Shown: positions 340 to 13,184, numbered from the stretch's first letter. The stretch: DNA of 15,640 nucleotides from Promethearchaeota archaeon (GCA_048940925.1 JBHLOC010000024.1:64108-79747), one strand, 5' to 3'. Notes: generated from the sequence alone by a model not told the origin. Translations and numbers: made by a program.

Positions 340-1218
340 GTGTTATATATTACTGAAGATCCGAAATTAACTAAAGAAATGATAAGATATGAAAAAGAAA
401 CGGGAAAGAAAGCTATATGGCGTGGATCGATAACTGAGGGATTTAAAAAATGGCAAAGAGGGGAAAAGATTTATGATTTAGATAGAAAAGGGATAACAAT
501 TATGGTCCCTGAAGATATTAAAACTAATTGGGAAAACTTTGCTAACGAAAATGATTTTAGTACTATTTCTAAGCTAATTAGAAAGGCAGTTAATTTCTAT
601 ATAAATTTTAAATCAAAAGGATCTTATTCCAGGGAAATGTCTGAAATTTCTTCAGAACTAAAAAGACCACTTACTTCAATTAAAGGATTTTCACAATTAT
701 TAATCGATAAACATAAAGATGAGTTTAGTTGGGAAGCTTTATTGAAAATCAAAGAAATTATAGATAATAGTTTAATACTTGAAAATAAGATTAAAACTAT
801 CTTAGAACATCGTCCTGCCAATAAAAAAGAGTATGAAATATTAATTGTAGATGATGATGAATCAACAATTAACCTGCTACTCAATTTTTTTGAAGGTAAG
901 GGTTATAAATGTAAAGAATCATATTTGGGAACTGATGCACTTGAATTTTTAAATAAACATATTCCTAAATTGATATTACTAGATATTCTTCTTCCTGATT
1001 TGAATGGTTACGAGATTTGTAAAACCTTGAAATTTAATAAAGAATATGGAAAATTTAATGATATACCTATTTTTTATATAACTGCTGTTCCCGAAGTTGA
1101 GGTTGTTATGAAGTTGAAAGAAACGGGTGCTAATGGTTACTTTTTAAAACCTTTTGATTTTAGAGAGTTTAATATTTTGTTTGAATATCTTCAAGTAAAA
1201 AATGATGATAAAAAGTAA
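340..1218 (+). CDS. Response regulator with N-terminal ETGKxAIWxG motif, RHH DNA-binding domain, degenerate DHp (HisKA-like) helix and C-terminal REC domain (copy 1)
   Basis: RHH pattern RKGITIMVPEDIKTNWENFANENDFSTISKLIRKAVNFYI. H-box-like ISSELKRPLTSIKGF has Ser in place of His. REC motifs are intact: ILIVDDD, LILLDILLPDLNGYEIC, YITA, FLKPF. Start is uncertain (GTG 340, ATT 349 or ATG 379). Confidence 0.9.
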   Translation: MLYITEDPKLTKEMIRYEKETGKKAIWRGSITEGFKKWQRGEKIYDLDRKGITIMVPEDIKTNWENFANENDFSTISKLIRKAVNFYINFKSKGSYSREMSEISSELKRPLTSIKGFSQLLIDKHKDEFSWEALLKIKEIIDNSLILENKIKTILEHRPANKKEYEILIVDDDESTINLLLNFFEGKGYKCKESYLGTDALEFLNKHIPKLILLDILLPDLNGYEICKTLKFNKEYGKFNDIPIFYITAVPEVEVVMKLKETGANGYFLKPFDFREFNILFEYLQVKNDDKK

Positions 1219-1256
1219 TTGAGTAATTAATTTGACTCATTACAAGTTGAGAATTT

Positions 1257-3185
1257 TTAGTTTCTATTTAGTCGGATAGTAAATTTACTCCCTTTACCCC
1301 TTCCTTTAGATTTTACTATAATTTTACCATTATGTAGTTTAACAATTTCTTTTGAAATGTATAAGCCTAGACCAGGCCCTTCCATATCGATATTCAAATT
1401 TTTTCCATACCTTTCAACCTTACCGAATTTCTTAAATAAAAATTGTATCTCCCTTTTTGTTAATCCTACGCCATCATCTTTAATAATGATATCTACATAC
1501 CTAGGATGTTCAAAAGTCTTAATATAAACACTACCATTAGGATAAGTATTTTTAATAGCATTTGATAGTATATTAGATATTACATTGCTTATTTTTAATT
1601 TATCTACATCTAAATATAATTTTTTGATAAGTTCAACATTTATGAAGATTTTACGTTTATTAGCAATAAAAATTAAATCATCAACACAATTTTTAATAAT
1701 TGGAATTAAATTTTCTCTTTTAAAATTTAGGATAAGTTGGTTTGATTCTATACTATAAGTAATTAGTAGATTATCAACTATATTTTTTAATCGATATCCA
1801 CCCTCATGAATAAATTTAAGAACATATTGAAAATTTTCATTCAGTTGATTCTTGTATTTATCTAATAAATATTGAGAGCCACTAAAAATTGAAATTAAGG
1901 GTGTTTTTAATTCATGTGAAATCCTTCTTATTAAATCACTCCTGATCTGTTCAAGCTCTTTTAATTTTTCAATTTCTCTTTTCATCATCTTTTCAATTTT
2001 TCTTTTCTCAGTTATGTCGCTAATAAGGGCAAAGATTTTTAATTTGTTATCGATTTCTGCCAGACTGCCTTTTACAGATATTGGAACATAATATCCTTTT
2101 TTATGTAATAATCTTAACTCCAAAGAAAATTTATCTCCAGCTTCAGGAGCATTATTAATTAATTTCATATCCCCCAGTTTATCTTGTGGATGTAAAAGTT
2201 TACTAAAATTTAATCCAGTTAATTCTTTTGGGTGATATCCAATTATATCATAAATTTGATGACTTATGTAAATAATTGTACCATCTATATTACTTTCCAC
2301 CAAAACATCTGAAATATTGGTTATTATATTTTTGATTTTCTCCTCAGACTCTCTTAATTGTATTTGGGCTTTAAGACGTTCTGAAATATCACGAATATAT
2401 TCAATTACTCCTTTAATTTCACCAGTATCGTGATCTAGAAGTGGAAAAGTGTAAACGTCTAACATACCTATAATTTTTCCATCACGATTCCTTCTCTCTA
2501 TAATATTGGAAGATGATTTACATTTTTTTATTACTTCTTGGCAAGTACAATCTTCGCATGGTTGTAATTTATTAAAAAATACATTATAACATTTTTTACT
2601 TAAAATAGGTTTCATATGTGGATACCACTTAGCTATAGTAGGATTCGCACGGACAATATTATAATCCTTATCAATGATCAAAATGCCATCTTGAATACTT
2701 TTAAAAGTATTAGAAAGTAATTTTTCTCTGTATCGAAGTTCTTCTTCTGTTTGAATTTTATCTGTTTTATCCTGTAAAAAAGATAGAATATAATTTTTCT
2801 CTTTAACTTTTATATGATTGGCATTTACAAATATGGTTTTTATTTTACCATTCTTGGTTTTATACTTAGTTTCAAAAGAGTCATGACCTTTCTTAATAAT
2901 CTTCAAGATATGAGCTTTATATTCCTCAGAATTTTCTGTAATGTCAAAATCTGGTATTATTAACTTTTTAAATTCCTCAGGAGTATAACCAAGAGTTTCA
3001 TTCATTTTACTGTTAAAATCAATAATCTTACCTGTTTCAGTATCAATAAGAATGATTGAATGCGGTGATTGCTCAAATAATGTCTTATATTTTTTTTCAG
3101 ACTCTTTTAATTTACTTTCTATTCGTTGCAATTCTACATGCATACCTGCTCCCCTTTTTTTTAATGCATGCTCTTCATGCTTCAT
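1257..3185 (-). CDS. Cytoplasmic PAS-PAS-PAS sensor histidine kinase (copy 1)
   Basis: Three PAS domains, each preceded by an LKESEKKY-type linker. H-box ISHELKTPLISI, N-box NILSNAIKNT, G1 DDGVGL, F-box LFKKFG, G2 GPGLGLYIS, G3 GKGSKF. No TM segment. Confidence 0.95.
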   Translation of the reverse strand: MKHEEHALKKRGAGMHVELQRIESKLKESEKKYKTLFEQSPHSIILIDTETGKIIDFNSKMNETLGYTPEEFKKLIIPDFDITENSEEYKAHILKIIKKGHDSFETKYKTKNGKIKTIFVNANHIKVKEKNYILSFLQDKTDKIQTEEELRYREKLLSNTFKSIQDGILIIDKDYNIVRANPTIAKWYPHMKPILSKKCYNVFFNKLQPCEDCTCQEVIKKCKSSSNIIERRNRDGKIIGMLDVYTFPLLDHDTGEIKGVIEYIRDISERLKAQIQLRESEEKIKNIITNISDVLVESNIDGTIIYISHQIYDIIGYHPKELTGLNFSKLLHPQDKLGDMKLINNAPEAGDKFSLELRLLHKKGYYVPISVKGSLAEIDNKLKIFALISDITEKRKIEKMMKREIEKLKELEQIRSDLIRRISHELKTPLISIFSGSQYLLDKYKNQLNENFQYVLKFIHEGGYRLKNIVDNLLITYSIESNQLILNFKRENLIPIIKNCVDDLIFIANKRKIFINVELIKKLYLDVDKLKISNVISNILSNAIKNTYPNGSVYIKTFEHPRYVDIIIKDDGVGLTKREIQFLFKKFGKVERYGKNLNIDMEGPGLGLYISKEIVKLHNGKIIVKSKGRGKGSKFTIRLNRN

Positions 3186-3199
3186 TTTGGCTAATACAT

Positions 3200-3216
3200 T
3201 TATACATTTTTTAAGT
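3200..3216. repeat. 17-bp element TTATACATTTTTTAAGT upstream of kinase 1, identical to 7285-7301
   Basis: Direct comparison of the two kinase 5' flanks. An 8-bp tandem duplication (ATACATTT x2) sits next to this copy only. Confidence 0.8.
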
Positions 3217-3446
3217 GAATACTTCTCTTCCTTTATTAGAAAACCAATTATTATTTTCTTGTCCTGCTAAATCAAAAATTCCTAGATCATTATTGAATGT
3301 TGAATAAACACTTGAATTGACACCCCTAGATGGCTGTAAAGGATTTTGCAAAACTGAAATAGGACTAACATGGCTAAAAATACTTCTTTAATTGTTGTTT
3401 TTCCTACTCCTGGTGGTCCAGTAAATATAATTTTTTTTCTATTCAA
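3211..3446 (-). pseudogene. Frameshifted, 3'-truncated small GTPase (Rag/Gtr1-like N-terminal half)
   Basis: Manual translation gives (TTG 3446) NRKKIIFTGPPGVGKTTIKEVF, then a frameshift at the A5 run 3376-3380, then FSHVSPISVLQNPLQPSRGVNSSVYSTFNNDLGIFDLAGQENNNWFSNKGREVFT*. G1 (GxxGxGKT), G2-like (PSRG) and G3 (DxAGQE) are present. G4 and G5 are absent. Confidence 0.85.
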
Positions 3447-3510
3447 ATTTAAATTCTGAATTTATGATTAAATTATCCTATATATTTTAAGGAATTTTTC
3501 ATGTATTTTT

Positions 3511-3723
3511 CTAGGTGTTTAAAGCATCTCTTAAAAGATTTCTAATAAATTGCTGTTCCAATTCAACTTTAACTGAAGTGTATATTGCTCTTGGACCTAG
3601 AGTATGATCATATTTACCAATGATTATAACAAAAGGATAGTCTTCTAAAATAGATTGAAAATTATTATAGGTATCGGAAATTATATTTTTTACAGTATCT
3701 TCTACTTGTTTCCTGTCAACCAT
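3511..3723 (-). pseudogene. Probable truncated longin/uDENN-like domain protein directly upstream of the GTPase remnant
   Basis: 70-aa ORF containing FVIIIGKYDHTLGPRAIY, resembling the first beta-hairpin of NPRL2/Afi1/uDENN-type longin domains (hydrophobic strand, F/Y-D/H, xxxGP). It is too short for a whole domain. Confidence 0.5.
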
Positions 3724-3956
3724 TTCTTCATTCCACTTTGCTTTTCTCTAATGTATACTATGAATAATTTTTTTAGAGGAATTTTTTTGAATATTAATTC
3801 TAGTAAGTCCCAAATATACACTATTCTTGATCCTTTTTCGTAAAAATAATAACAAAATTTATTTATTAATTTTTTTATTTTACTATTAAAAAATATTTTA
3901 GCACTAAAAAAAAAAGTTAGTACCTTTTTACATTAAAATAAAAAGGATAATAAGAT

Positions 3957-4251
3957 ATGTCAGAATCAGTTAAAACAATTATTAAATATTTTTCTGATCG
4001 GTTTTTAAATTTAGATTATTATTCAAGTTCGAATAAATTAAAAGAGATTGAAATTGTCAGATTACCCGATCTCATTCAGTTAGAAGATTATGGATTTGAA
4101 AATCTAATTGAAAAATTGTCTCTTAACAGAACCACCTTGAAAAATGCCTTAATAGCTTTTAGTTTTATCAACCACACCTAAAGGGCAAATTCTTTCAGAA
4201 TTAAAAGAAATGTTCATAAAACGTGGTTTGGCTAGTCGTTATGATTTATAA
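3957..4251 (+). pseudogene. Divergently oriented gene remnant of unknown function, probably with an internal deletion or frameshift
   Basis: The 74-aa ORF ends at 4181. An overlapping frame (4162-4251) reads VLSTTPKGQILSELKEMFIKRGLASRYDL*, which looks like a genuine protein C-terminus. Confidence 0.5.
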
Positions 4252-4359
4252 TAAATTTAACTGGCTCAATAAGCTAAATCTCACATAAGATATCTTAATA
4301 TTATTTTTACCATTTTTTATTATTAAAAATGTTTTTAACTTGATCTTCATAATTTTTAG

Positions 4360-4384
4360 ACTTAAATAGATCATACTTAAATAG
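4360..4384 (+). promoter_or_regulatory. Direct repeat ACTTAAATAG x2 (4360-4369, 4375-4384) upstream of regulator 2, a candidate operator
   Basis: Perfect 10-bp direct repeat with a 15-bp period, about 80-130 bp before the gene. The AT-rich background weakens its significance. Confidence 0.3.
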
Positions 4385-4493
4385 TTTTTAGTGTATAATT
4401 CAAATATTTAATAGAATAGATAAATTGAAAATGGGATTAATTATTTTTTATAGGTGATAATCAATACCAAATTCTGAAAAAAAAAATAACGAA

Positions 4494-5321
4494 ATGAAGC
4501 GATATGAAGAAGAAACAGGAAAACAAGCAATTTGGCAGGGTAAAGTTACAAAAGGTTTTTTAAGATGGAAAGAAGGTGAAAAAAATTATTACGCTAATAA
4601 AAAAAGAATTTCTGTTTATGTCTCAAGTGAAACTGAAAAAATATGGGAAAGATTTTTAAAGATACACAAATACTCTTCCTTTTCTAAACTTATACGAGAG
4701 AGTGTTAACTTTTACATTAATGAAAAATCGAAATTTGGTGGAAATTTAATCTCGGATTTAGCAGAAGAGAAATCATCGAATATGGTTCATATATTAAAGG
4801 AAAGATTAACTACAATTAAAGGATTTTTACAATTAGCACTTGAAAAATTTAGTGATATCTTAAATGATGAAATAAAATCAATTATTAATAATGTTTTAAA
4901 TGAGGCAAGACAATTAGAAAATAATTTTGTAATAAAATTAGAGGAAAAAGAAGTAAAACCTTCCCAATATGATGTTCTCCTTATTGAAGATGATCTATCC
5001 ACTGTAGATTTATTAAAAAATTATTTTGAAAGTAAAGGCTATAGTTTTAAAGGAGTTTTAACAGGAGTGAAAGGAGTTGAAGAATTAAGTAGGTCTACAC
5101 CAAAATTAATTTTAATTGACATCATTTTACCTGATATTAGTGGATATGACATATGTAAAGATATTAAATCTCACAAAACATTAAAAAACATACCTGTTTT
5201 CTATTTAACAGCAGTACCTGGTGATAAGGTAGAGAATCGGATGCAAGACACAATGGCAGATGGTTTTATTCTAAAACCTTTTGATTTACTTGATTTGGAA
5301 ATTTTATTTAAATATTTATAA
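4494..5321 (+). CDS. RHH-DHp-REC response regulator (copy 2, paralog of 340..1218)
   Basis: YEEETGKQAIWQGKVTKGFLRW motif; RHH KKRISVYVSSETEKIW...SSFSKLIRESVNFYI; H-box-like MVHILKERLTTIKGF; REC VLLIEDD, LILIDIILPD, YLTA, ILKPF. The frame is open upstream to ATA at 4464. Confidence 0.9.
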   Translation: MKRYEEETGKQAIWQGKVTKGFLRWKEGEKNYYANKKRISVYVSSETEKIWERFLKIHKYSSFSKLIRESVNFYINEKSKFGGNLISDLAEEKSSNMVHILKERLTTIKGFLQLALEKFSDILNDEIKSIINNVLNEARQLENNFVIKLEEKEVKPSQYDVLLIEDDLSTVDLLKNYFESKGYSFKGVLTGVKGVEELSRSTPKLILIDIILPDISGYDICKDIKSHKTLKNIPVFYLTAVPGDKVENRMQDTMADGFILKPFDLLDLEILFKYL

Positions 5322-5376
5322 ATTTAATAGCATTAGTTTAATAGTTCTAATTATTACAGGAAACTTTAATATTAGT

Positions 5377-7278
5377 TTAATGCTTTTTATATGGAAGTGA
5401 AAAAGAGCAAGTAGTACCTTTACCTCTTCCTTCTGATTCAATCCAAATATTTCCTCCATGGAGCTCTATTATCTCTTTTGAGAGATATAAGCCTAATCCA
5501 ATACCATCAGAAATTATATCCCACCCTTCTCCATATTTCTCAATCTTACCAAATGGTTTAAATAATTGTTCAATTTCATTTTGATTTAATCCTATTCCAT
5601 TATCTTTAATAGATGTTATTACAGAACTCTTCAAGATTACAACCTGAATTAATATATTTCCACCTTTAGGAGTATATTTTATCGAATTCAAGAGAAGATT
5701 CGTAATCAAATTATAAATTCGAGTCTTATCTATTTCTATGATTAATATATCAGGAATATTTAAGCTAATAGTGTGTTTTCTTAATCTAATCATCCCATCC
5801 AATTCTTCTATTCCTTTCTTAATCAAATCAGATAGATTTTCTCGAGTCCTTGCTAATTCTACTAAATGTTTATCTAATAGTGAACTTTCTATGAAATTAT
5901 TTATCAAAATTCTAAGCCTCTCCGCTCCATCTTTAATTCTTTTTAAAAAAGATAATATTGTATTATTAAGACTTTCACTATAATCTGTTAATATTAAATC
6001 GGTAAATCCTTTAATGGATATGAGAGGAGTTTTGAATTCATGGGAAAATCTTGTTATTAGATTGGATTTCATTTCTGCAATCTCTTTTTTTTCAGTTATA
6101 TCTTTTAGCCATAATCTTGATTTAAGTAAATTCCCTTGATAATCAAATTCATTTCTTACTAATCCTGACAACCATATTATTTTTCCTTCTTTGTTCAATA
6201 GTTTAAATTCAATATTTTGTTCTCCATGGAAGTCTCTAATTTTTTTTAGATCTTTAGAAAATATAACTTTATAAAAAATATTTTCATCATTCAATTGTTC
6301 TTTTGAATAGCCAATAATATTCAGTAACCTAGGATTAATGTAAATAATTCCTCCTTTTACGAAGTCAATCTCCATTAAACCCATTGAAGATGTTTCAATA
6401 AGATTCCGATATTTTTGTTCAGATGCTCTTAATTTCTTTTCCATCATTTTCTTTTCAGTAATATCAACGACTATTCCTCTTACGCCTTCCCTTTTTTTTA
6501 TATTATCATAAAAGTATTGATTTAATTCAAGAATCCATTTAATTTCTCCATTTTTAGTGCTAATTCGATACTCTCTCTTACCTTTTTGGATATTAGGATC
6601 GTTATGAAACTTTTTTATATCTTTTCTTACTTTAGGTAAATCCTCTTGGTGAATTAAATCACCCCAATTTATATTTCCTGAAATAAAGTCATATTCAGAA
6701 TATCCTGTAATTTCCTCTACAGCACCTTGGAAGAAAGCAGCAGAAAAATCAGCGTAGCCTTGAAATGCAATCCCCTGAAAATTTTGTATCAATGCACGAT
6801 ATTTCTCTTCAGATTCTTTTAATTCCTGCTCAGCTTTCTTTCTATCTGTGATATCTCGTACTAATCCTCTAAAACCAATTATTTTTCCATTGGAATCATA
6901 TCTTAAATAAACAGAAGATTCAACAAATAATTTTTCTCCACTCTTCTTAATAACTTCATGATCAAATAAGTGCGATCCTTCTCCTGCTTTATATAGATTG
7001 TTAAATACAGTAAATACTTTCTTTTTAGTCTTTTCATCATATAATTGACTATAATGCATATTCAGTAATTCTTTTCTTGTGTACCCAATATATTTGGGTA
7101 AAGCACTATTGAAAAATGTGAAATTTCCCTTAATATCCACTTCATAATATAATTCATTGATGTGTTCGAGTATACTCTTATATTTTTCTTCAGATTCTTT
7201 TAGTTTTCTTTCTATTCGTTGCAATTCTACATTCATTTTTGCTTCCCTTTTTACTAATATATGTTCTTTATGTTTCAT
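5377..7278 (-). CDS. Cytoplasmic PAS-PAS-PAS sensor histidine kinase (copy 2)
   Basis: PAS domains end in RDITDRK, VDITEKK and KDITEKK. H-box FSHEFKTPLISIKGF, N-box NLLLNSIKYT, DNGIGL, LFKPFG, GIGLGLYLS, GKGTTC. Confidence 0.95.
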   Translation of the reverse strand: MKHKEHILVKREAKMNVELQRIERKLKESEEKYKSILEHINELYYEVDIKGNFTFFNSALPKYIGYTRKELLNMHYSQLYDEKTKKKVFTVFNNLYKAGEGSHLFDHEVIKKSGEKLFVESSVYLRYDSNGKIIGFRGLVRDITDRKKAEQELKESEEKYRALIQNFQGIAFQGYADFSAAFFQGAVEEITGYSEYDFISGNINWGDLIHQEDLPKVRKDIKKFHNDPNIQKGKREYRISTKNGEIKWILELNQYFYDNIKKREGVRGIVVDITEKKMMEKKLRASEQKYRNLIETSSMGLMEIDFVKGGIIYINPRLLNIIGYSKEQLNDENIFYKVIFSKDLKKIRDFHGEQNIEFKLLNKEGKIIWLSGLVRNEFDYQGNLLKSRLWLKDITEKKEIAEMKSNLITRFSHEFKTPLISIKGFTDLILTDYSESLNNTILSFLKRIKDGAERLRILINNFIESSLLDKHLVELARTRENLSDLIKKGIEELDGMIRLRKHTISLNIPDILIIEIDKTRIYNLITNLLLNSIKYTPKGGNILIQVVILKSSVITSIKDNGIGLNQNEIEQLFKPFGKIEKYGEGWDIISDGIGLGLYLSKEIIELHGGNIWIESEGRGKGTTCSFSLPYKKH

Positions 7279-7281
7279 TTT

Positions 7282-7302
7282 AACTTATACATTTTTTAAG
7301 TT
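7282..7302. promoter_or_regulatory. Inverted repeat AACTTA-N9-TAAGTT overlapping the 17-bp element shared by both kinase 5' flanks
   Basis: AACTTA at 7282-7287 and TAAGTT at 7297-7302, 3 bp from the kinase ATG. The equivalent site before kinase 1 is CATTTA-N9-TAAGTG. Confidence 0.45.
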
Positions 7303-8584: not shown

Positions 8585-9637
8585 ATGAAAGAAAAATTAA
8601 AATCCCAACTTATAAGCATACTACTAATATCTGGATTATTTTTTTCAGTTCTCTATTTTATTAGTTATCTTAAAATAGTAAAATTAAAGAATAGAGATGA
8701 AAAACTTTGTCATTTTCAAAATTATTATTATGTTGATATATATGATGTGAATATGCCTTTTGAATCATTATATAAGAGATCGTTGGAAGAAATTCTATTG
8801 AATGAGATTAACTTCCTATATGGTTCTTTAATTGAAAGATTTGAAAATGTCTATAACATAATATTTGCTTTTGGAACCTCAACATTTTTCATATTTCTCG
8901 AATTCAATAACAATTTCATATTATCCAAAAAATCAGAAGGATGTTTATTATATGAAATAGAAGGAGTACTATTAACAGAGGAAGAAATAAAAGTTTTTAG
9001 ACTGATCGAAGAACAACTAAAGCAGAATAGAATCTTTAACATAGAAAAAGCAATTACATATATTCAATCAAGGTACAATAAAATTAAGGGCAATTTAAAT
9101 TATAACGGAATAATGGAAGTCATCAATTCTCTGATTAAAAAGAAAATTATTGTTGAAGGCTCAAAATTAACGAGAAAAACTGTATTACTAAATTCGAATA
9201 GAAATGATATATATAATCTAATAAAACTCAACCCTGGTATCTATGTGAATAGATTAGCGAAAACGTTGAAGATAAGCTGTTTTGTAATAAAATGGCACAT
9301 ACATATGCTTCTTAAATTTAACTTAATCAGGCAAAGGAATTTAAACGGTCATATTTCTTATTATGACAATTTATTAACCCCGACTAATGACATCATCTTT
9401 CACATCATTTCAAAAGAAAAATGTGTTAGAATTATTGAGCTTTTAAAGTCAAATAATAATGGTGTTACAAAATATCAAATCTCTAAGCAGTTACGCATGC
9501 ATTATAATACAATCGTAAAATATTTAGATAACCTTGATGCATTTAATTTGTTGATTAGAAAAGAAAATAATAATAGAGAGTACTTCTTTCTAAATACTAT
9601 GAATTTTGAAAATCTAATACTTAAAGGAGAAAACTAA
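8585..9637 (+). CDS. Membrane-anchored multi-winged-helix transcriptional regulator (ArsR/COG3398-like tandem wHTH)
   Basis: N-terminal hydrophobic helix LISILLISGLFFSVLYFISYL. wHTH units NRNDIYNLIKLNPGIYVNRLAKTL...WHIHMLLKFNLI and RIIELLK...GVTKYQISKQLRMHYNTIVKYLDNLDAFNLL. Confidence 0.85.
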   Translation: MKEKLKSQLISILLISGLFFSVLYFISYLKIVKLKNRDEKLCHFQNYYYVDIYDVNMPFESLYKRSLEEILLNEINFLYGSLIERFENVYNIIFAFGTSTFFIFLEFNNNFILSKKSEGCLLYEIEGVLLTEEEIKVFRLIEEQLKQNRIFNIEKAITYIQSRYNKIKGNLNYNGIMEVINSLIKKKIIVEGSKLTRKTVLLNSNRNDIYNLIKLNPGIYVNRLAKTLKISCFVIKWHIHMLLKFNLIRQRNLNGHISYYDNLLTPTNDIIFHIISKEKCVRIIELLKSNNNGVTKYQISKQLRMHYNTIVKYLDNLDAFNLLIRKENNNREYFFLNTMNFENLILKGEN

Positions 9638-11792: not shown

Positions 11793-13184
11793 ATGAAAAT
11801 TCTATTATTATATCCTCCTTTTCAAGTTGGAAAGGGAATGGGAAAAGTGATGTGTAGTCCTCCATTGTCACTATTAACTCTAGCTGGAACAGTTAAAGAT
11901 CTATTTCATGAAATAGAAATACTCGATTTAAATATAGATCATTCTTATGGAATTGAAAAAATAGAACAAAAGATAAAGCAATATGACATGGTTGGAATCA
12001 CTTGTATGACAAATACTTTTAAAGTAGTATTAAATATTTGTAAAATTGCTAAGAGAAATGGTGTTAAAACTCTATTGGGTGGATTTCATCCAACATTAAA
12101 ACCAGATATTATTGAAGAATTTAATTGTATTGATATGTTATGTAGGGGTGAAGGAGAAATTACCTTTAGAGAATTATTAGAAGGCAAACCGAAAAGTGAA
12201 ATTTTAGGGTTATCATATAGAGTTAACGGAGAAGTATTTCATAATCCAGATCGACCTTCTATTAAAAATTTGGATGAGTTATCCTATCCAAGTAATAAAC
12301 TTTTTCCTTCTGATGCTTATCATTATTTATGGATAAAAGCTTGGGTTGTTGAATCCAGTAGAGGATGTCCTTTTAACTGTAATTTTTGCTGTGTAACTAA
12401 ATTTCATAAAGGAAAATATAGAGTAAAATCTCCTCAAAGAGTAATTAATGAACTCTTTAATGTACCTCCAGATGTTAAACTAATATTTTTTGTAGATGAT
12501 AATTTTTCGCTAAATTCTAAGCGTATTCTTCGTATTTGTGAATTAATAAGAAAAAATAGGTTACATAAAAGATTTATGTTTGTTTGTCAGAGTCGAGTTG
12601 ACGATTTAGCAAATAACCCTAATATGGTTAAAGCGATGTCAGAAGCCGGATTTATATGTGTTTTTCTCGGTATCGAGTCAACAAAACAGATGAGTTTAGA
12701 TCAAATGAACAAGCGATATTCACTTGATAAACTACGTAAGTGCATTAATCTCTGTCATAAAAATGGAATAATTGTGTTTGGATCTTTTATAATTGGCAAT
12801 TTAGGAGAAAATTCAGCAGATACATGGGAGACTCTTCATATGATGAAAGAACTTGAAATAGACCTCATGATGACTAATCCAATAACACCATTTCCAAATA
12901 CTCCTCTATATGATGATGCTGTGGCTAATAATTGGATATCTAAGGATTTTAAATGGGAAAAATGGGATCTAACGCCTGTAATGAGTACACCTGATATGTC
13001 TAAAGTGGAAATACAAGATCTACTCGATGAGAGTTATAGATTCTTCTATAATGATATTGGTTATTTCTTATTTGGAAAACGATTATTAAGATTAATCTTT
13101 AATCCAAAATTTTGGTGGTTTGGTAAAGTTGCATTTTCTTTTCTAATCAATGGATTGACAAAATTCGTATTACAATTAGATTAA
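11793..13184 (+). CDS. B12-binding domain radical SAM protein (class B methyltransferase/BchE-like superfamily)
   Basis: N-terminal B12-binding domain (LLYPP, PPLSLLTLAG, VGIT, GGFHPT, GEGE). SSRGCPFNCNFC carries the CxxxCxxC motif. Also FVDDNF, FLGIES, FIIG and TPFPNTPLY. Confidence 0.95.
   Translation: MKILLLYPPFQVGKGMGKVMCSPPLSLLTLAGTVKDLFHEIEILDLNIDHSYGIEKIEQKIKQYDMVGITCMTNTFKVVLNICKIAKRNGVKTLLGGFHPTLKPDIIEEFNCIDMLCRGEGEITFRELLEGKPKSEILGLSYRVNGEVFHNPDRPSIKNLDELSYPSNKLFPSDAYHYLWIKAWVVESSRGCPFNCNFCCVTKFHKGKYRVKSPQRVINELFNVPPDVKLIFFVDDNFSLNSKRILRICELIRKNRLHKRFMFVCQSRVDDLANNPNMVKAMSEAGFICVFLGIESTKQMSLDQMNKRYSLDKLRKCINLCHKNGIIVFGSFIIGNLGENSADTWETLHMMKELEIDLMMTNPITPFPNTPLYDDAVANNWISKDFKWEKWDLTPVMSTPDMSKVEIQDLLDESYRFFYNDIGYFLFGKRLLRLIFNPKFWWFGKVAFSFLINGLTKFVLQLD

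Follow-up and report, generated by a model that had tools for sequence, protein, structure and literature searches.

Two paralogous two-component pairs with reverse-order RHH-DHp-REC regulators in a Promethearchaeota archaeon

Introduction

How might a sensor kinase act on transcription through a regulator that carries its predicted DNA-binding domain first, its receiver last and a piece of a histidine kinase in between? The question is raised by two gene cassettes at positions 340-7278 of a 15,640-nucleotide stretch of DNA, hereafter the window, from a Promethearchaeota archaeon (GCA_048940925.1 JBHLOC010000024.1:64108-79747; C82:64108-79747 of a 4.8-Mb Asgard genome). The window is rich in A and T (GC 22-31%), and close homologues carry the names of Promethearchaeota (Loki-type) proteins from metagenome-assembled genomes. 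In each cassette, a regulator made of a short N-terminal module (N-module), a ribbon-helix-helix (RHH) domain, a dimerisation and histidine phosphotransfer (DHp) hairpin and a receiver (REC) domain lies tail to tail with a soluble kinase bearing three PAS domains. To our knowledge, hardly anything is known of how the many PAS kinases of Asgard archaea are linked to gene expression.

We explore here the anatomy, distribution, gene contexts and possible mechanism of these regulators, and put a probability of roughly 60% on the following answer: the cassettes are two paralogous two-component pairs whose regulators are of the transcription-factor type with reversed domain order, and in which the DHp acts as a scaffold.

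Whether the architecture had already been catalogued was left open by the original prediction for this locus, and it had been. RHH-HisKA-REC, with an Arc-type RHH and with the same domain order and taxon as the window regulators, is listed for Lokiarchaeum GC14_75 in the 2018 census of Galperin, Makarova, Wolf and Koonin (J Bacteriol 200:e00681-17; PMC5847659), according to which DNA-binding response regulators are rare in archaea. The census devotes a single sentence to the architecture, without checking the fold or covering distribution, gene context or mechanism, and is silent on the N-module, the variable histidine, the tandem-pair core and the link to a GTPase-roadblock island (see below). 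Additionally, a 2023 survey (PMC10343646) includes in a table, without comment, a 34-kDa Lokiarchaeum HisKA+REC protein adjacent to the row of a giant PAS kinase. No functional study of the RHH-DHp-REC architecture was found in the literature searched. The window regulators are members of a catalogued architecture that is uncharacterised functionally; what is new here are the fold checks, the distribution, three gene contexts, the histidine pattern, the N-module and two further members.

Organization of the two cassettes

Cassette 1 consists of regulator 1 (P0001; 340-1218, plus strand), a protein of 292 amino acids (aa) with a GTG start, and kinase 1 (P0003; 1257-3185, minus strand; 642 aa), separated by a 38-bp gap with a short hairpin-like inverted repeat (1219-1256). 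Cassette 2 has the same layout, with regulator 2 (P0002; 4494-5321, plus strand; 275 aa), a 55-bp gap (5322-5376) and kinase 2 (P0004; 5377-7278, minus strand; 633 aa). The coordinates of the open reading frames (ORFs) bear out the predicted convergence of each regulator on a soluble triple-PAS kinase, including the lengths of both gaps. The two regulators share 43% identity over their full length (E 7e-67) and the two kinases 32% (E 9e-75).

In regulator 1, the N-module spans residues 14-46 (379-477), the RHH residues 49-93 (484-618), the DHp residues 98-157 (631-810) and the REC residues 166-284 (835-1191), all on the plus strand. The corresponding parts of regulator 2 are residues 1-33 (N-module), ~36-80 (RHH), ~92-151 (DHp) and 160-275 (REC). 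Fold predictions and profile searches agree on this order, in line with the succession of ETGKxAIWxG motif, RHH, HisKA-like helix and REC that had been read from the sequence.

Domains of the regulators

An AlphaFold2 (AF2) model of regulator 1 residues 1-95, with a mean predicted local distance difference test score (pLDDT) of 84, contains a strand-helix-helix unit of ~45 residues. The Foldseek matches listed for this model at probability >=0.8 are RHH proteins, including PrpA, CopA(SO), ORF56, NikR, CopG, ParD, PutA and MazE, with a root-mean-square deviation (rmsd) of 0.9-2.6 Å over 37-48 columns. VIA-align, which is independent of Foldseek, returned RHH domains over residues 47-95 as nearly all of its top 50 matches, with NikR at the top (Z 6.9, 1.2 Å over 46 residues) and PutA at 0.9 Å over 44. 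An RHH had been proposed at residues 49-90; structure search of the predicted fold recovers it at 49-93, and on these models the RHH fold of the regulators is established. Its target would be DNA. S77 and R81 at the start of RHH helix B are invariant in the family, and this end of the helix presumably contacts the DNA backbone, by analogy with known RHH proteins. Moreover, the residues aligned at the strand differ by clade, G-I-T-I-M in one and R-I-S-L-Y in another, a difference that would suit paralogues with distinct operators, provided that these residues face DNA.

The DHp was recognised with a profile, A1, built from the first 160 residues of 38 members from species-representative genomes, which aligns with both helices of the Thermotoga HK853 DHp (E 1.5e-8). 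An AF2 model of regulator 1 residues 1-160 (pLDDT 82.7) has helices at 76-128 and 131-156; Foldseek matches it best to the DHp domains of GacS, CpxA and ERS1 (probability 0.97-1.0), and VIA-align places HK853 first (Z 9.3). Because helical hairpins are common folds, it is mainly the sequence profile that carries the assignment. Pfam HisKA scores are weak in the regulators themselves (21.4 and 17.2 bits, against a gathering score of 26.9; E 2.7e-4 in regulator 1), and many regulator homologues have a precomputed PF00512 match. What had been described as a HisKA-like helix at residues 98-155 is thus resolved by profile and fold searches into a DHp hairpin at 98-157, and it descends from a histidine kinase. 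It also lacks its ATPase domain as predicted, since Pfam sees no HATPase_c in either regulator; a search among proteins of 512-2000 aa for an ATPase-bearing longer relative of the RHH-DHp part found none at E<=1e-5, which is weak evidence.

Between RHH and DHp lies a linker that varies in length from 0 to 9 residues, is Gly-rich in many members and has a pLDDT dipping to 64. We therefore treat it as flexible, and on the same grounds reject a rigid helical coupling of the two domains, which the single AF2 helix at 76-128 would otherwise depict.

The receiver domain is found by Pfam with E 1.8e-20 in regulator 1 and 7.3e-18 in regulator 2. Its key residues are D172, D173, D215, T248 and K270 in regulator 1 and D166, D167, D209, T239 and K261 in regulator 2. 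Across 121 family members, D215 and K270 are present in all, D172 and T248 in 120 and D173 in 113. Judged by these residues, the REC is fully competent.

Partner kinases

Both kinases contain, according to Pfam, three PAS stretches followed by HisKA and HATPase_c, and the His-Glu of the H-box is present in each (S-H-E-L-K-T-P-L in kinase 1, S-H-E-F-K-T-P-L in kinase 2). The maximum Kyte-Doolittle values over 19 residues are 0.96 and 1.47, so that no segment is hydrophobic enough for a membrane span and the kinases are considered soluble. The second PAS domain (PAS2) of kinase 1 holds five Cys within residues 199-222 (2520-2591, minus strand), a cluster that kinase 2 does not have. Three of these Cys (K-C-Y, then nine residues, then P-C-x-x-C) are kept in the partner kinases at four related loci (L010, L002, L009 and L012), which suggests that PAS2 of kinase 1 is a metal- or redox-sensing domain.

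Family distribution and gene contexts

More than 120 full-length homologues with 52-100% identity are present in public data, where the homologue search gave 1,823 hits. Among 301 Asgard genomes sampled, the RHH-DHp part occurs in 64 of the 68 genomes of the GTDB family to which the window belongs (1-12 matches each) and in 0 of the 232 genomes of 29 other Asgard families at E<=1e-10; as genomes of a single family are not independent samples, these counts describe a distribution and are not statistical tests. The lineage specificity that had been supposed thus narrows to one GTDB family within the Asgard phylum. The window genome carries at least six full-length family copies and one divergent copy on contig C33 (L043; G000:C33:850-2901, minus strand). 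This seventh member has an RHH-like N-terminus and a REC without the N-module, and directly follows a one-PAS kinase on the same strand, the classical operon layout.

The gene neighbourhoods of the family were surveyed at 22 loci from genome contigs, together with the loci of the window genome and its relatives. The tree and the gene maps define three contexts. The most conserved consists of two tandem regulators, whose positions form two separate orthologous clades, with the H-box His retained in both (L003/L004 at G000:C40:173313-175417, L014, L017, L018, L020-L022, L024, L030). These pairs lie among TFB, ribosomal protein L2, GatD/E, JAB protein, DUF2110 and profilin genes, with no kinase in the flanks examined. 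A second context is the kinase-linked clade (support 96/90), which includes regulator 1 and whose members converge on a PAS kinase (L002, L009, L010, L011, L012) or precede one (L027-L029). The third is represented by regulator 2, on a long branch outside the kinase-linked clade, whose orthologues in two genomes of the same genus (70-76% identity) face a P0004-like kinase across 73 bp (L052) or a 2-kb spacer (L051). Convergent adjacency is therefore seen at L002, L009, L010, L011, L012 and L052, and at L051 with its spacer, and regulator and kinase are co-directional at L027-L029 and L043. Of the supposed linkage of homologues to PAS kinases, what stands is its occurrence for both regulator types and at orthologous loci; it is not general, given the tandem pairs without a flanking kinase. 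In a separate observation, an intact Gtr1/RagA-type GTPase gene directly follows a family regulator at L012:10135-11442 and L016:7021-8328, and a 94-aa fragment of such a gene occupies the same place at L015.

Role of the DHp hairpin

In regulator 1, whose H-box is S-S-E-L-K-R-P-L-T-S-I-K-G-F, Ser (S105) stands where the phospho-acceptor His would be; regulator 2 (V-H-I-L-K-E-R-L-T-T-I-K-G-F) keeps the His but has lost Glu +1 and Pro +5. In the family at large, the surroundings are canonical (L-K-x-P-L-T-x-I-K-G-F-S-Q-L) and L-K-x-x-L-T-x-I-K-G-F stays fixed; Ala or Thr often follows the His, and Glu occupies position +4, where active HisKA domains have Thr or Asn. At the His position itself, the clade of regulator 1 (orthologues 64-90% identical) has His 13 times, Gln four times, Arg and Leu twice each and Ser and Tyr once each, the orthologues at 87-90% identity having Gln, Gln and His. 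The sister kinase-linked clade of L002 and L010 has His 28 times and Tyr 33 times. Because the His varies among kinase-linked orthologues while the REC Asp is invariant, the DHp in these two cassettes is probably a dimerisation or docking scaffold and not a phosphate relay. Of the two roles originally offered for this hairpin, holding the RHH together as a dimer fits these data, and passing on phosphate does not.

We envisage the following mechanism for a regulator composed of a small, basic and aromatic N-module, then the RHH, the DHp hairpin and, last, an intact receiver. The tail-to-tail soluble PAS kinase would sense a cytoplasmic signal, which for kinase 1 may be a metal or redox cue acting through the Cys-bearing PAS, and would autophosphorylate. 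The phosphoryl group would then pass from the kinase to the receiver Asp (D215 in regulator 1, D209 in regulator 2). A four-helix-bundle dimer of the DHp would hold two RHH chains, and may also offer a docking surface for the receiver. Phosphorylation would shift the docking of the receiver or the pairing between receivers, thereby changing the oligomeric state and the occupancy of operators by the RHH and, in turn, acting on the target genes.

Alternative explanations

The DHp could instead take part in a true His-Asp phosphorelay, in which the regulator His would receive phosphate from the kinase ATPase in trans, or from its own REC, and relay it like Spo0B or ChpT. The DHp-REC fusion recalls hybrid kinases, the H-box is canonical apart from catalytic details, and the His is present in 35 of the 38 species representatives, in all 19 members of the two tandem-pair clades and in regulator 2; this conservation indicates that the His probably has a function somewhere in the family. 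However, regulator 1 has Ser and about half of the sister clade Tyr, and the conserved phosphotransfer His typical of Spo0B and ChpT is replaced by Ser, Gln, Arg, Leu or Tyr among close orthologues. Neither the regulators nor the relatives found have an ATPase, the +1 residue is often not acidic, and regulator 2 has lost both Glu +1 and Pro +5. The REC Asp, unlike the His, never varies, and a relay appears unlikely. A further alternative is that the regulator modulates its partner kinase through a DHp-DHp heteromer, as RetS does with GacS. A decoy that binds kinases would be expected to look like this, an ATPase-less DHp encoded beside a kinase; structure searches rank the GacS DHp and the RetS-GacS complex (7n0e) among their best matches (probability 0.99-1.0, rmsd 1.2-1.5 Å), and the H-box surface is conserved while the His is free to vary. 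Yet the regulator DHp is not specifically similar to the DHp of its own partner kinase (9 pairs, permutation p 0.12), the most conserved members are the tandem pairs without a kinase in the flanks examined, and intact REC and RHH domains speak for a conventional output function, which makes a decoy decidedly improbable.

The output domain could also be read differently, with the RHH as a protein-binding or purely structural module and the regulator as a non-transcriptional adaptor in the GTPase-roadblock pathway. This would be consistent with the rarity of archaeal DNA-binding response regulators (PMC5847659), with an operator search that found none, and with the presence of the N-module in non-DNA proteins, namely an ABC ATPase and small GTPases. 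The fold nevertheless matches DNA-bound RHH structures (PutA, CopG, TacA and AmrZ, rmsd 0.9-2.6 Å), and S77 and R81 are invariant at the start of helix B; we regard such an adaptor as highly improbable.

The reading of the cassettes as two-component pairs with a DHp scaffold has its own difficulties. The conserved His of the tandem pairs and most species representatives, its probable function, the p of 0.12 for matching DHp domains and the operator search, which found no repeat above chance upstream of the regulators, all weigh against it, and so do several further results. Pfam finds no RHH model at E<=1 in either regulator, the four in-register matches of the family profile to CopG-type PDB chains are not significant (E 0.25-0.7), and the Foldseek E-values of the RHH exceed 0.1, the domain being only ~45 residues long. 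Furthermore, conserved adjacency is the sole argument for the partnership, since convergent genes are not co-transcribed, and cross-talk is possible because the genome has at least 20 PAS kinases.

Comparison with known systems

NikR, which joins an RHH to a metal-binding tetramerisation domain, and AmrZ both have an N-terminal RHH dimer and a C-terminal domain that sets the oligomeric state. In the window regulators, by contrast, control would come from REC phosphorylation through a DHp four-helix bundle and not from ligand binding. Like Spo0B, ChpT and the RetS-GacS DHp heteromer, they use the DHp fold outside a working kinase; however, Spo0B and ChpT depend on the His that this family loses repeatedly. 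In contrast to ATPase-dead DHp proteins, the window regulators have no remnant of the catalytic and ATP-binding (CA) domain, and their DHp is fused to RHH and REC. Among archaeal regulators, FilR1 of Methanosaeta harundinacea (wHTH-DUF1724-REC) and LtrR of Methanococcoides burtonii (HTH-REC) likewise carry the DNA-binding domain first and the REC last, and both have a histidine kinase as partner (PMC5847659). They differ from the window regulators, in which the output is an RHH and not an HTH and the middle is a kinase-type DHp, and there is no sequence kinship outside the REC.

Duplication history and the GTPase-roadblock island

The cassettes had been described as duplicated. They are indeed paralogous and share one layout, but they are not each other's closest relatives. 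The best paralogue of regulator 1 (58% identity) lies on contig C51 beside the best paralogue of kinase 1 (40% identity), and pair 1 was therefore duplicated as a unit. Kinase 2 has seven other kinase matches in the genome that outscore its match to kinase 1. A local tandem duplication of the whole cassette was rejected, given that regulator 2 falls outside the kinase-linked clade, the nearest paralogues of kinase 2 are elsewhere and the duplicate of cassette 1 is on C51; since their closest kinase and regulator relatives lie elsewhere, the two cassettes are old paralogues that lie next to each other. At their 5' ends, immediate upstream flanks included (3070-3201 for kinase 1 and 7163-7294 for kinase 2, both minus strand), the two kinase genes are copies of one another at 81% identity over 132 nt. 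Of this, 119 nt at the kinase 5' ends are 84% identical and are found in this genome only in these two genes, which looks like local gene conversion.

A conserved island of about ten genes (C82:52000-67300; L050) ends with cassette 1. The first part contains two PAS kinases, a 221-aa gene, a HEAT-GNAT protein, a roadblock protein and a small GTPase; in the opposite orientation follow a 158-aa gene, a roadblock protein, a 151-aa gene, a 536-aa gene to which no Pfam family was assigned, the regulator and its convergent kinase. The same genome has a copy of the island at C51:3900-16900 (L049), in the same order except for the 221-aa gene, which is present on C82 only, and the part from the roadblock gene to the convergent kinase recurs at L009 and L010. 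The GTPase-roadblock island is most likely the regulatory context of cassette 1. Judged by gene content alone, it can be likened to the actinobacterial conservon (CvnA kinase, CvnB roadblock, CvnC, and CvnD, an MglA-type GTPase), which likewise joins histidine kinases, roadblock proteins and a small GTPase; the Asgard island differs in having three PAS kinases, a HEAT-GNAT protein and a predicted DNA-binding regulator.

Upstream sequences

The ~60 bp upstream of the GTG of regulator 1 (276-339) are ~90% identical to L009:5938-6002, ahead of a regulator 1 orthologue with 87% identity in which the GTG start and the promoter-like upstream stretch are kept; farther upstream, the sequences have diverged. 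This conservation supports the GTG at 340 as the start of regulator 1, and the conserved stretch contains a TATA-like TTTATATAAATAT and the start context G-G-T-G. Promoter alignments showed only TATA-like conservation. Two candidate operators were considered and dismissed, as neither exceeded chance in shuffles, nor the first in counts over the whole window: an exact 10-bp direct repeat, ACTTAAATAG, whose two copies, 15 bp apart, occupy 4360-4384 and precede regulator 2 by ~110 bp, and an 11-mer, TTTAGATTAAA, that the promoter of regulator 1 shares (at 320-330) with the island's divergent promoter (C82 ~60.6-60.9 kb). Ahead of the ATG of regulator 2, a stop codon is followed in frame by S-I-P-N-S-E-K-K-N-N-E (4461-4493), a stretch similar to the N-terminal extension of other members and devoid of ATG, GTG or TTG. 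It is either a decayed extension or the product of a non-canonical start.

The N-terminal module

The N-module carries the motif Y-E-x-E-T-G-K-x-A-I-W-R-G-x-x-T-x-G-F-x-x-W-x-x-G-E-K-x-Y, which is nearly invariant across family alignments, so that the ETGKxAIWxG motif noticed at the outset is real. AF2 predicts a helix at 12-21, a beta-hairpin at 26-31 and a helix at 33-39 (pLDDT 85-90), the module having been folded within the longer models (residues 1-95 and 1-160). It has no match in Pfam, NCBIfam or ESM Atlas and no fold match in the PDB, and a profile of residues 1-95 retrieves only 191 cluster representatives among 1.84 billion proteins. Some of these carry the module in other protein contexts: in an Arf/Rag-like GTPase, where a REC follows, in Ras-like GTPases with one or two copies, eight times in one protein between Lys-rich linkers and in a NosD-like protein. 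Occurrences other than that at window positions 379-477 include G000:C62:5235-5483 (minus strand; L042:1489-1740), L040:1489-2658 and the proteins P0196, P0237, P0240 and P0269.

In the window genome, the N-module lies at the start of an ABC ATPase and, in one copy behind a Lys-rich linker, at the end of RNA polymerase subunit A', which Pfam recognises by Rpb1 domains 2-5; the A' tail of P0269 has three copies. Of 40 other genomes of the family, 39 have an A' tail with the N-module, for the most part in ORFs of 865-1040 aa. A wider sample gave the tail in 50 of 51 family genomes, in three of four from the sister family and in 0 of 145 other Asgard genomes that are >=85% complete. No description of this A' tail module was found in the literature searched. 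That the ~33-residue module (E-T-G-K-x-A-I-W-R-G-x-x-T-x-x-F-x-x-W) might be a lineage-specific adaptor tag, coupling regulators and GTPases to the polymerase tail, is a speculative and rather unlikely proposal.

Other features of the window

An Rfam scan of the window found no RNA family. Downstream of the cassettes lie a 350-aa protein with two HTH domains (HTH_11 and the HVO_0163 N-terminal type; 8585-9637, plus strand) and a B12-binding radical SAM enzyme (11793-13184, plus strand), neither of which has an evident link to the cassettes. Upstream of kinase 1, a P-loop motif, G-P-P-G-V-G-K-T, is encoded on the minus strand at ~3385-3420, outside the listed ORFs.

Implications

The family is a near-universal, multi-copy and lineage-restricted candidate link from PAS kinases to gene expression in Asgard archaea. 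It reuses the dimerisation domain of a kinase as a joint between a receiver and an RHH, which offers a test case for conformational signalling by a non-catalytic DHp. Moreover, in cassette 1 a predicted DNA-binding response regulator adjoins a eukaryote-like G-protein switch. If the N-module binds itself, a common hub protein or nucleic acid, regulators and GTPases would be physically coupled to the polymerase tail; if true, this would be a recruitment platform loosely comparable to the polymerase C-terminal domain, in close archaeal relatives of eukaryotes.

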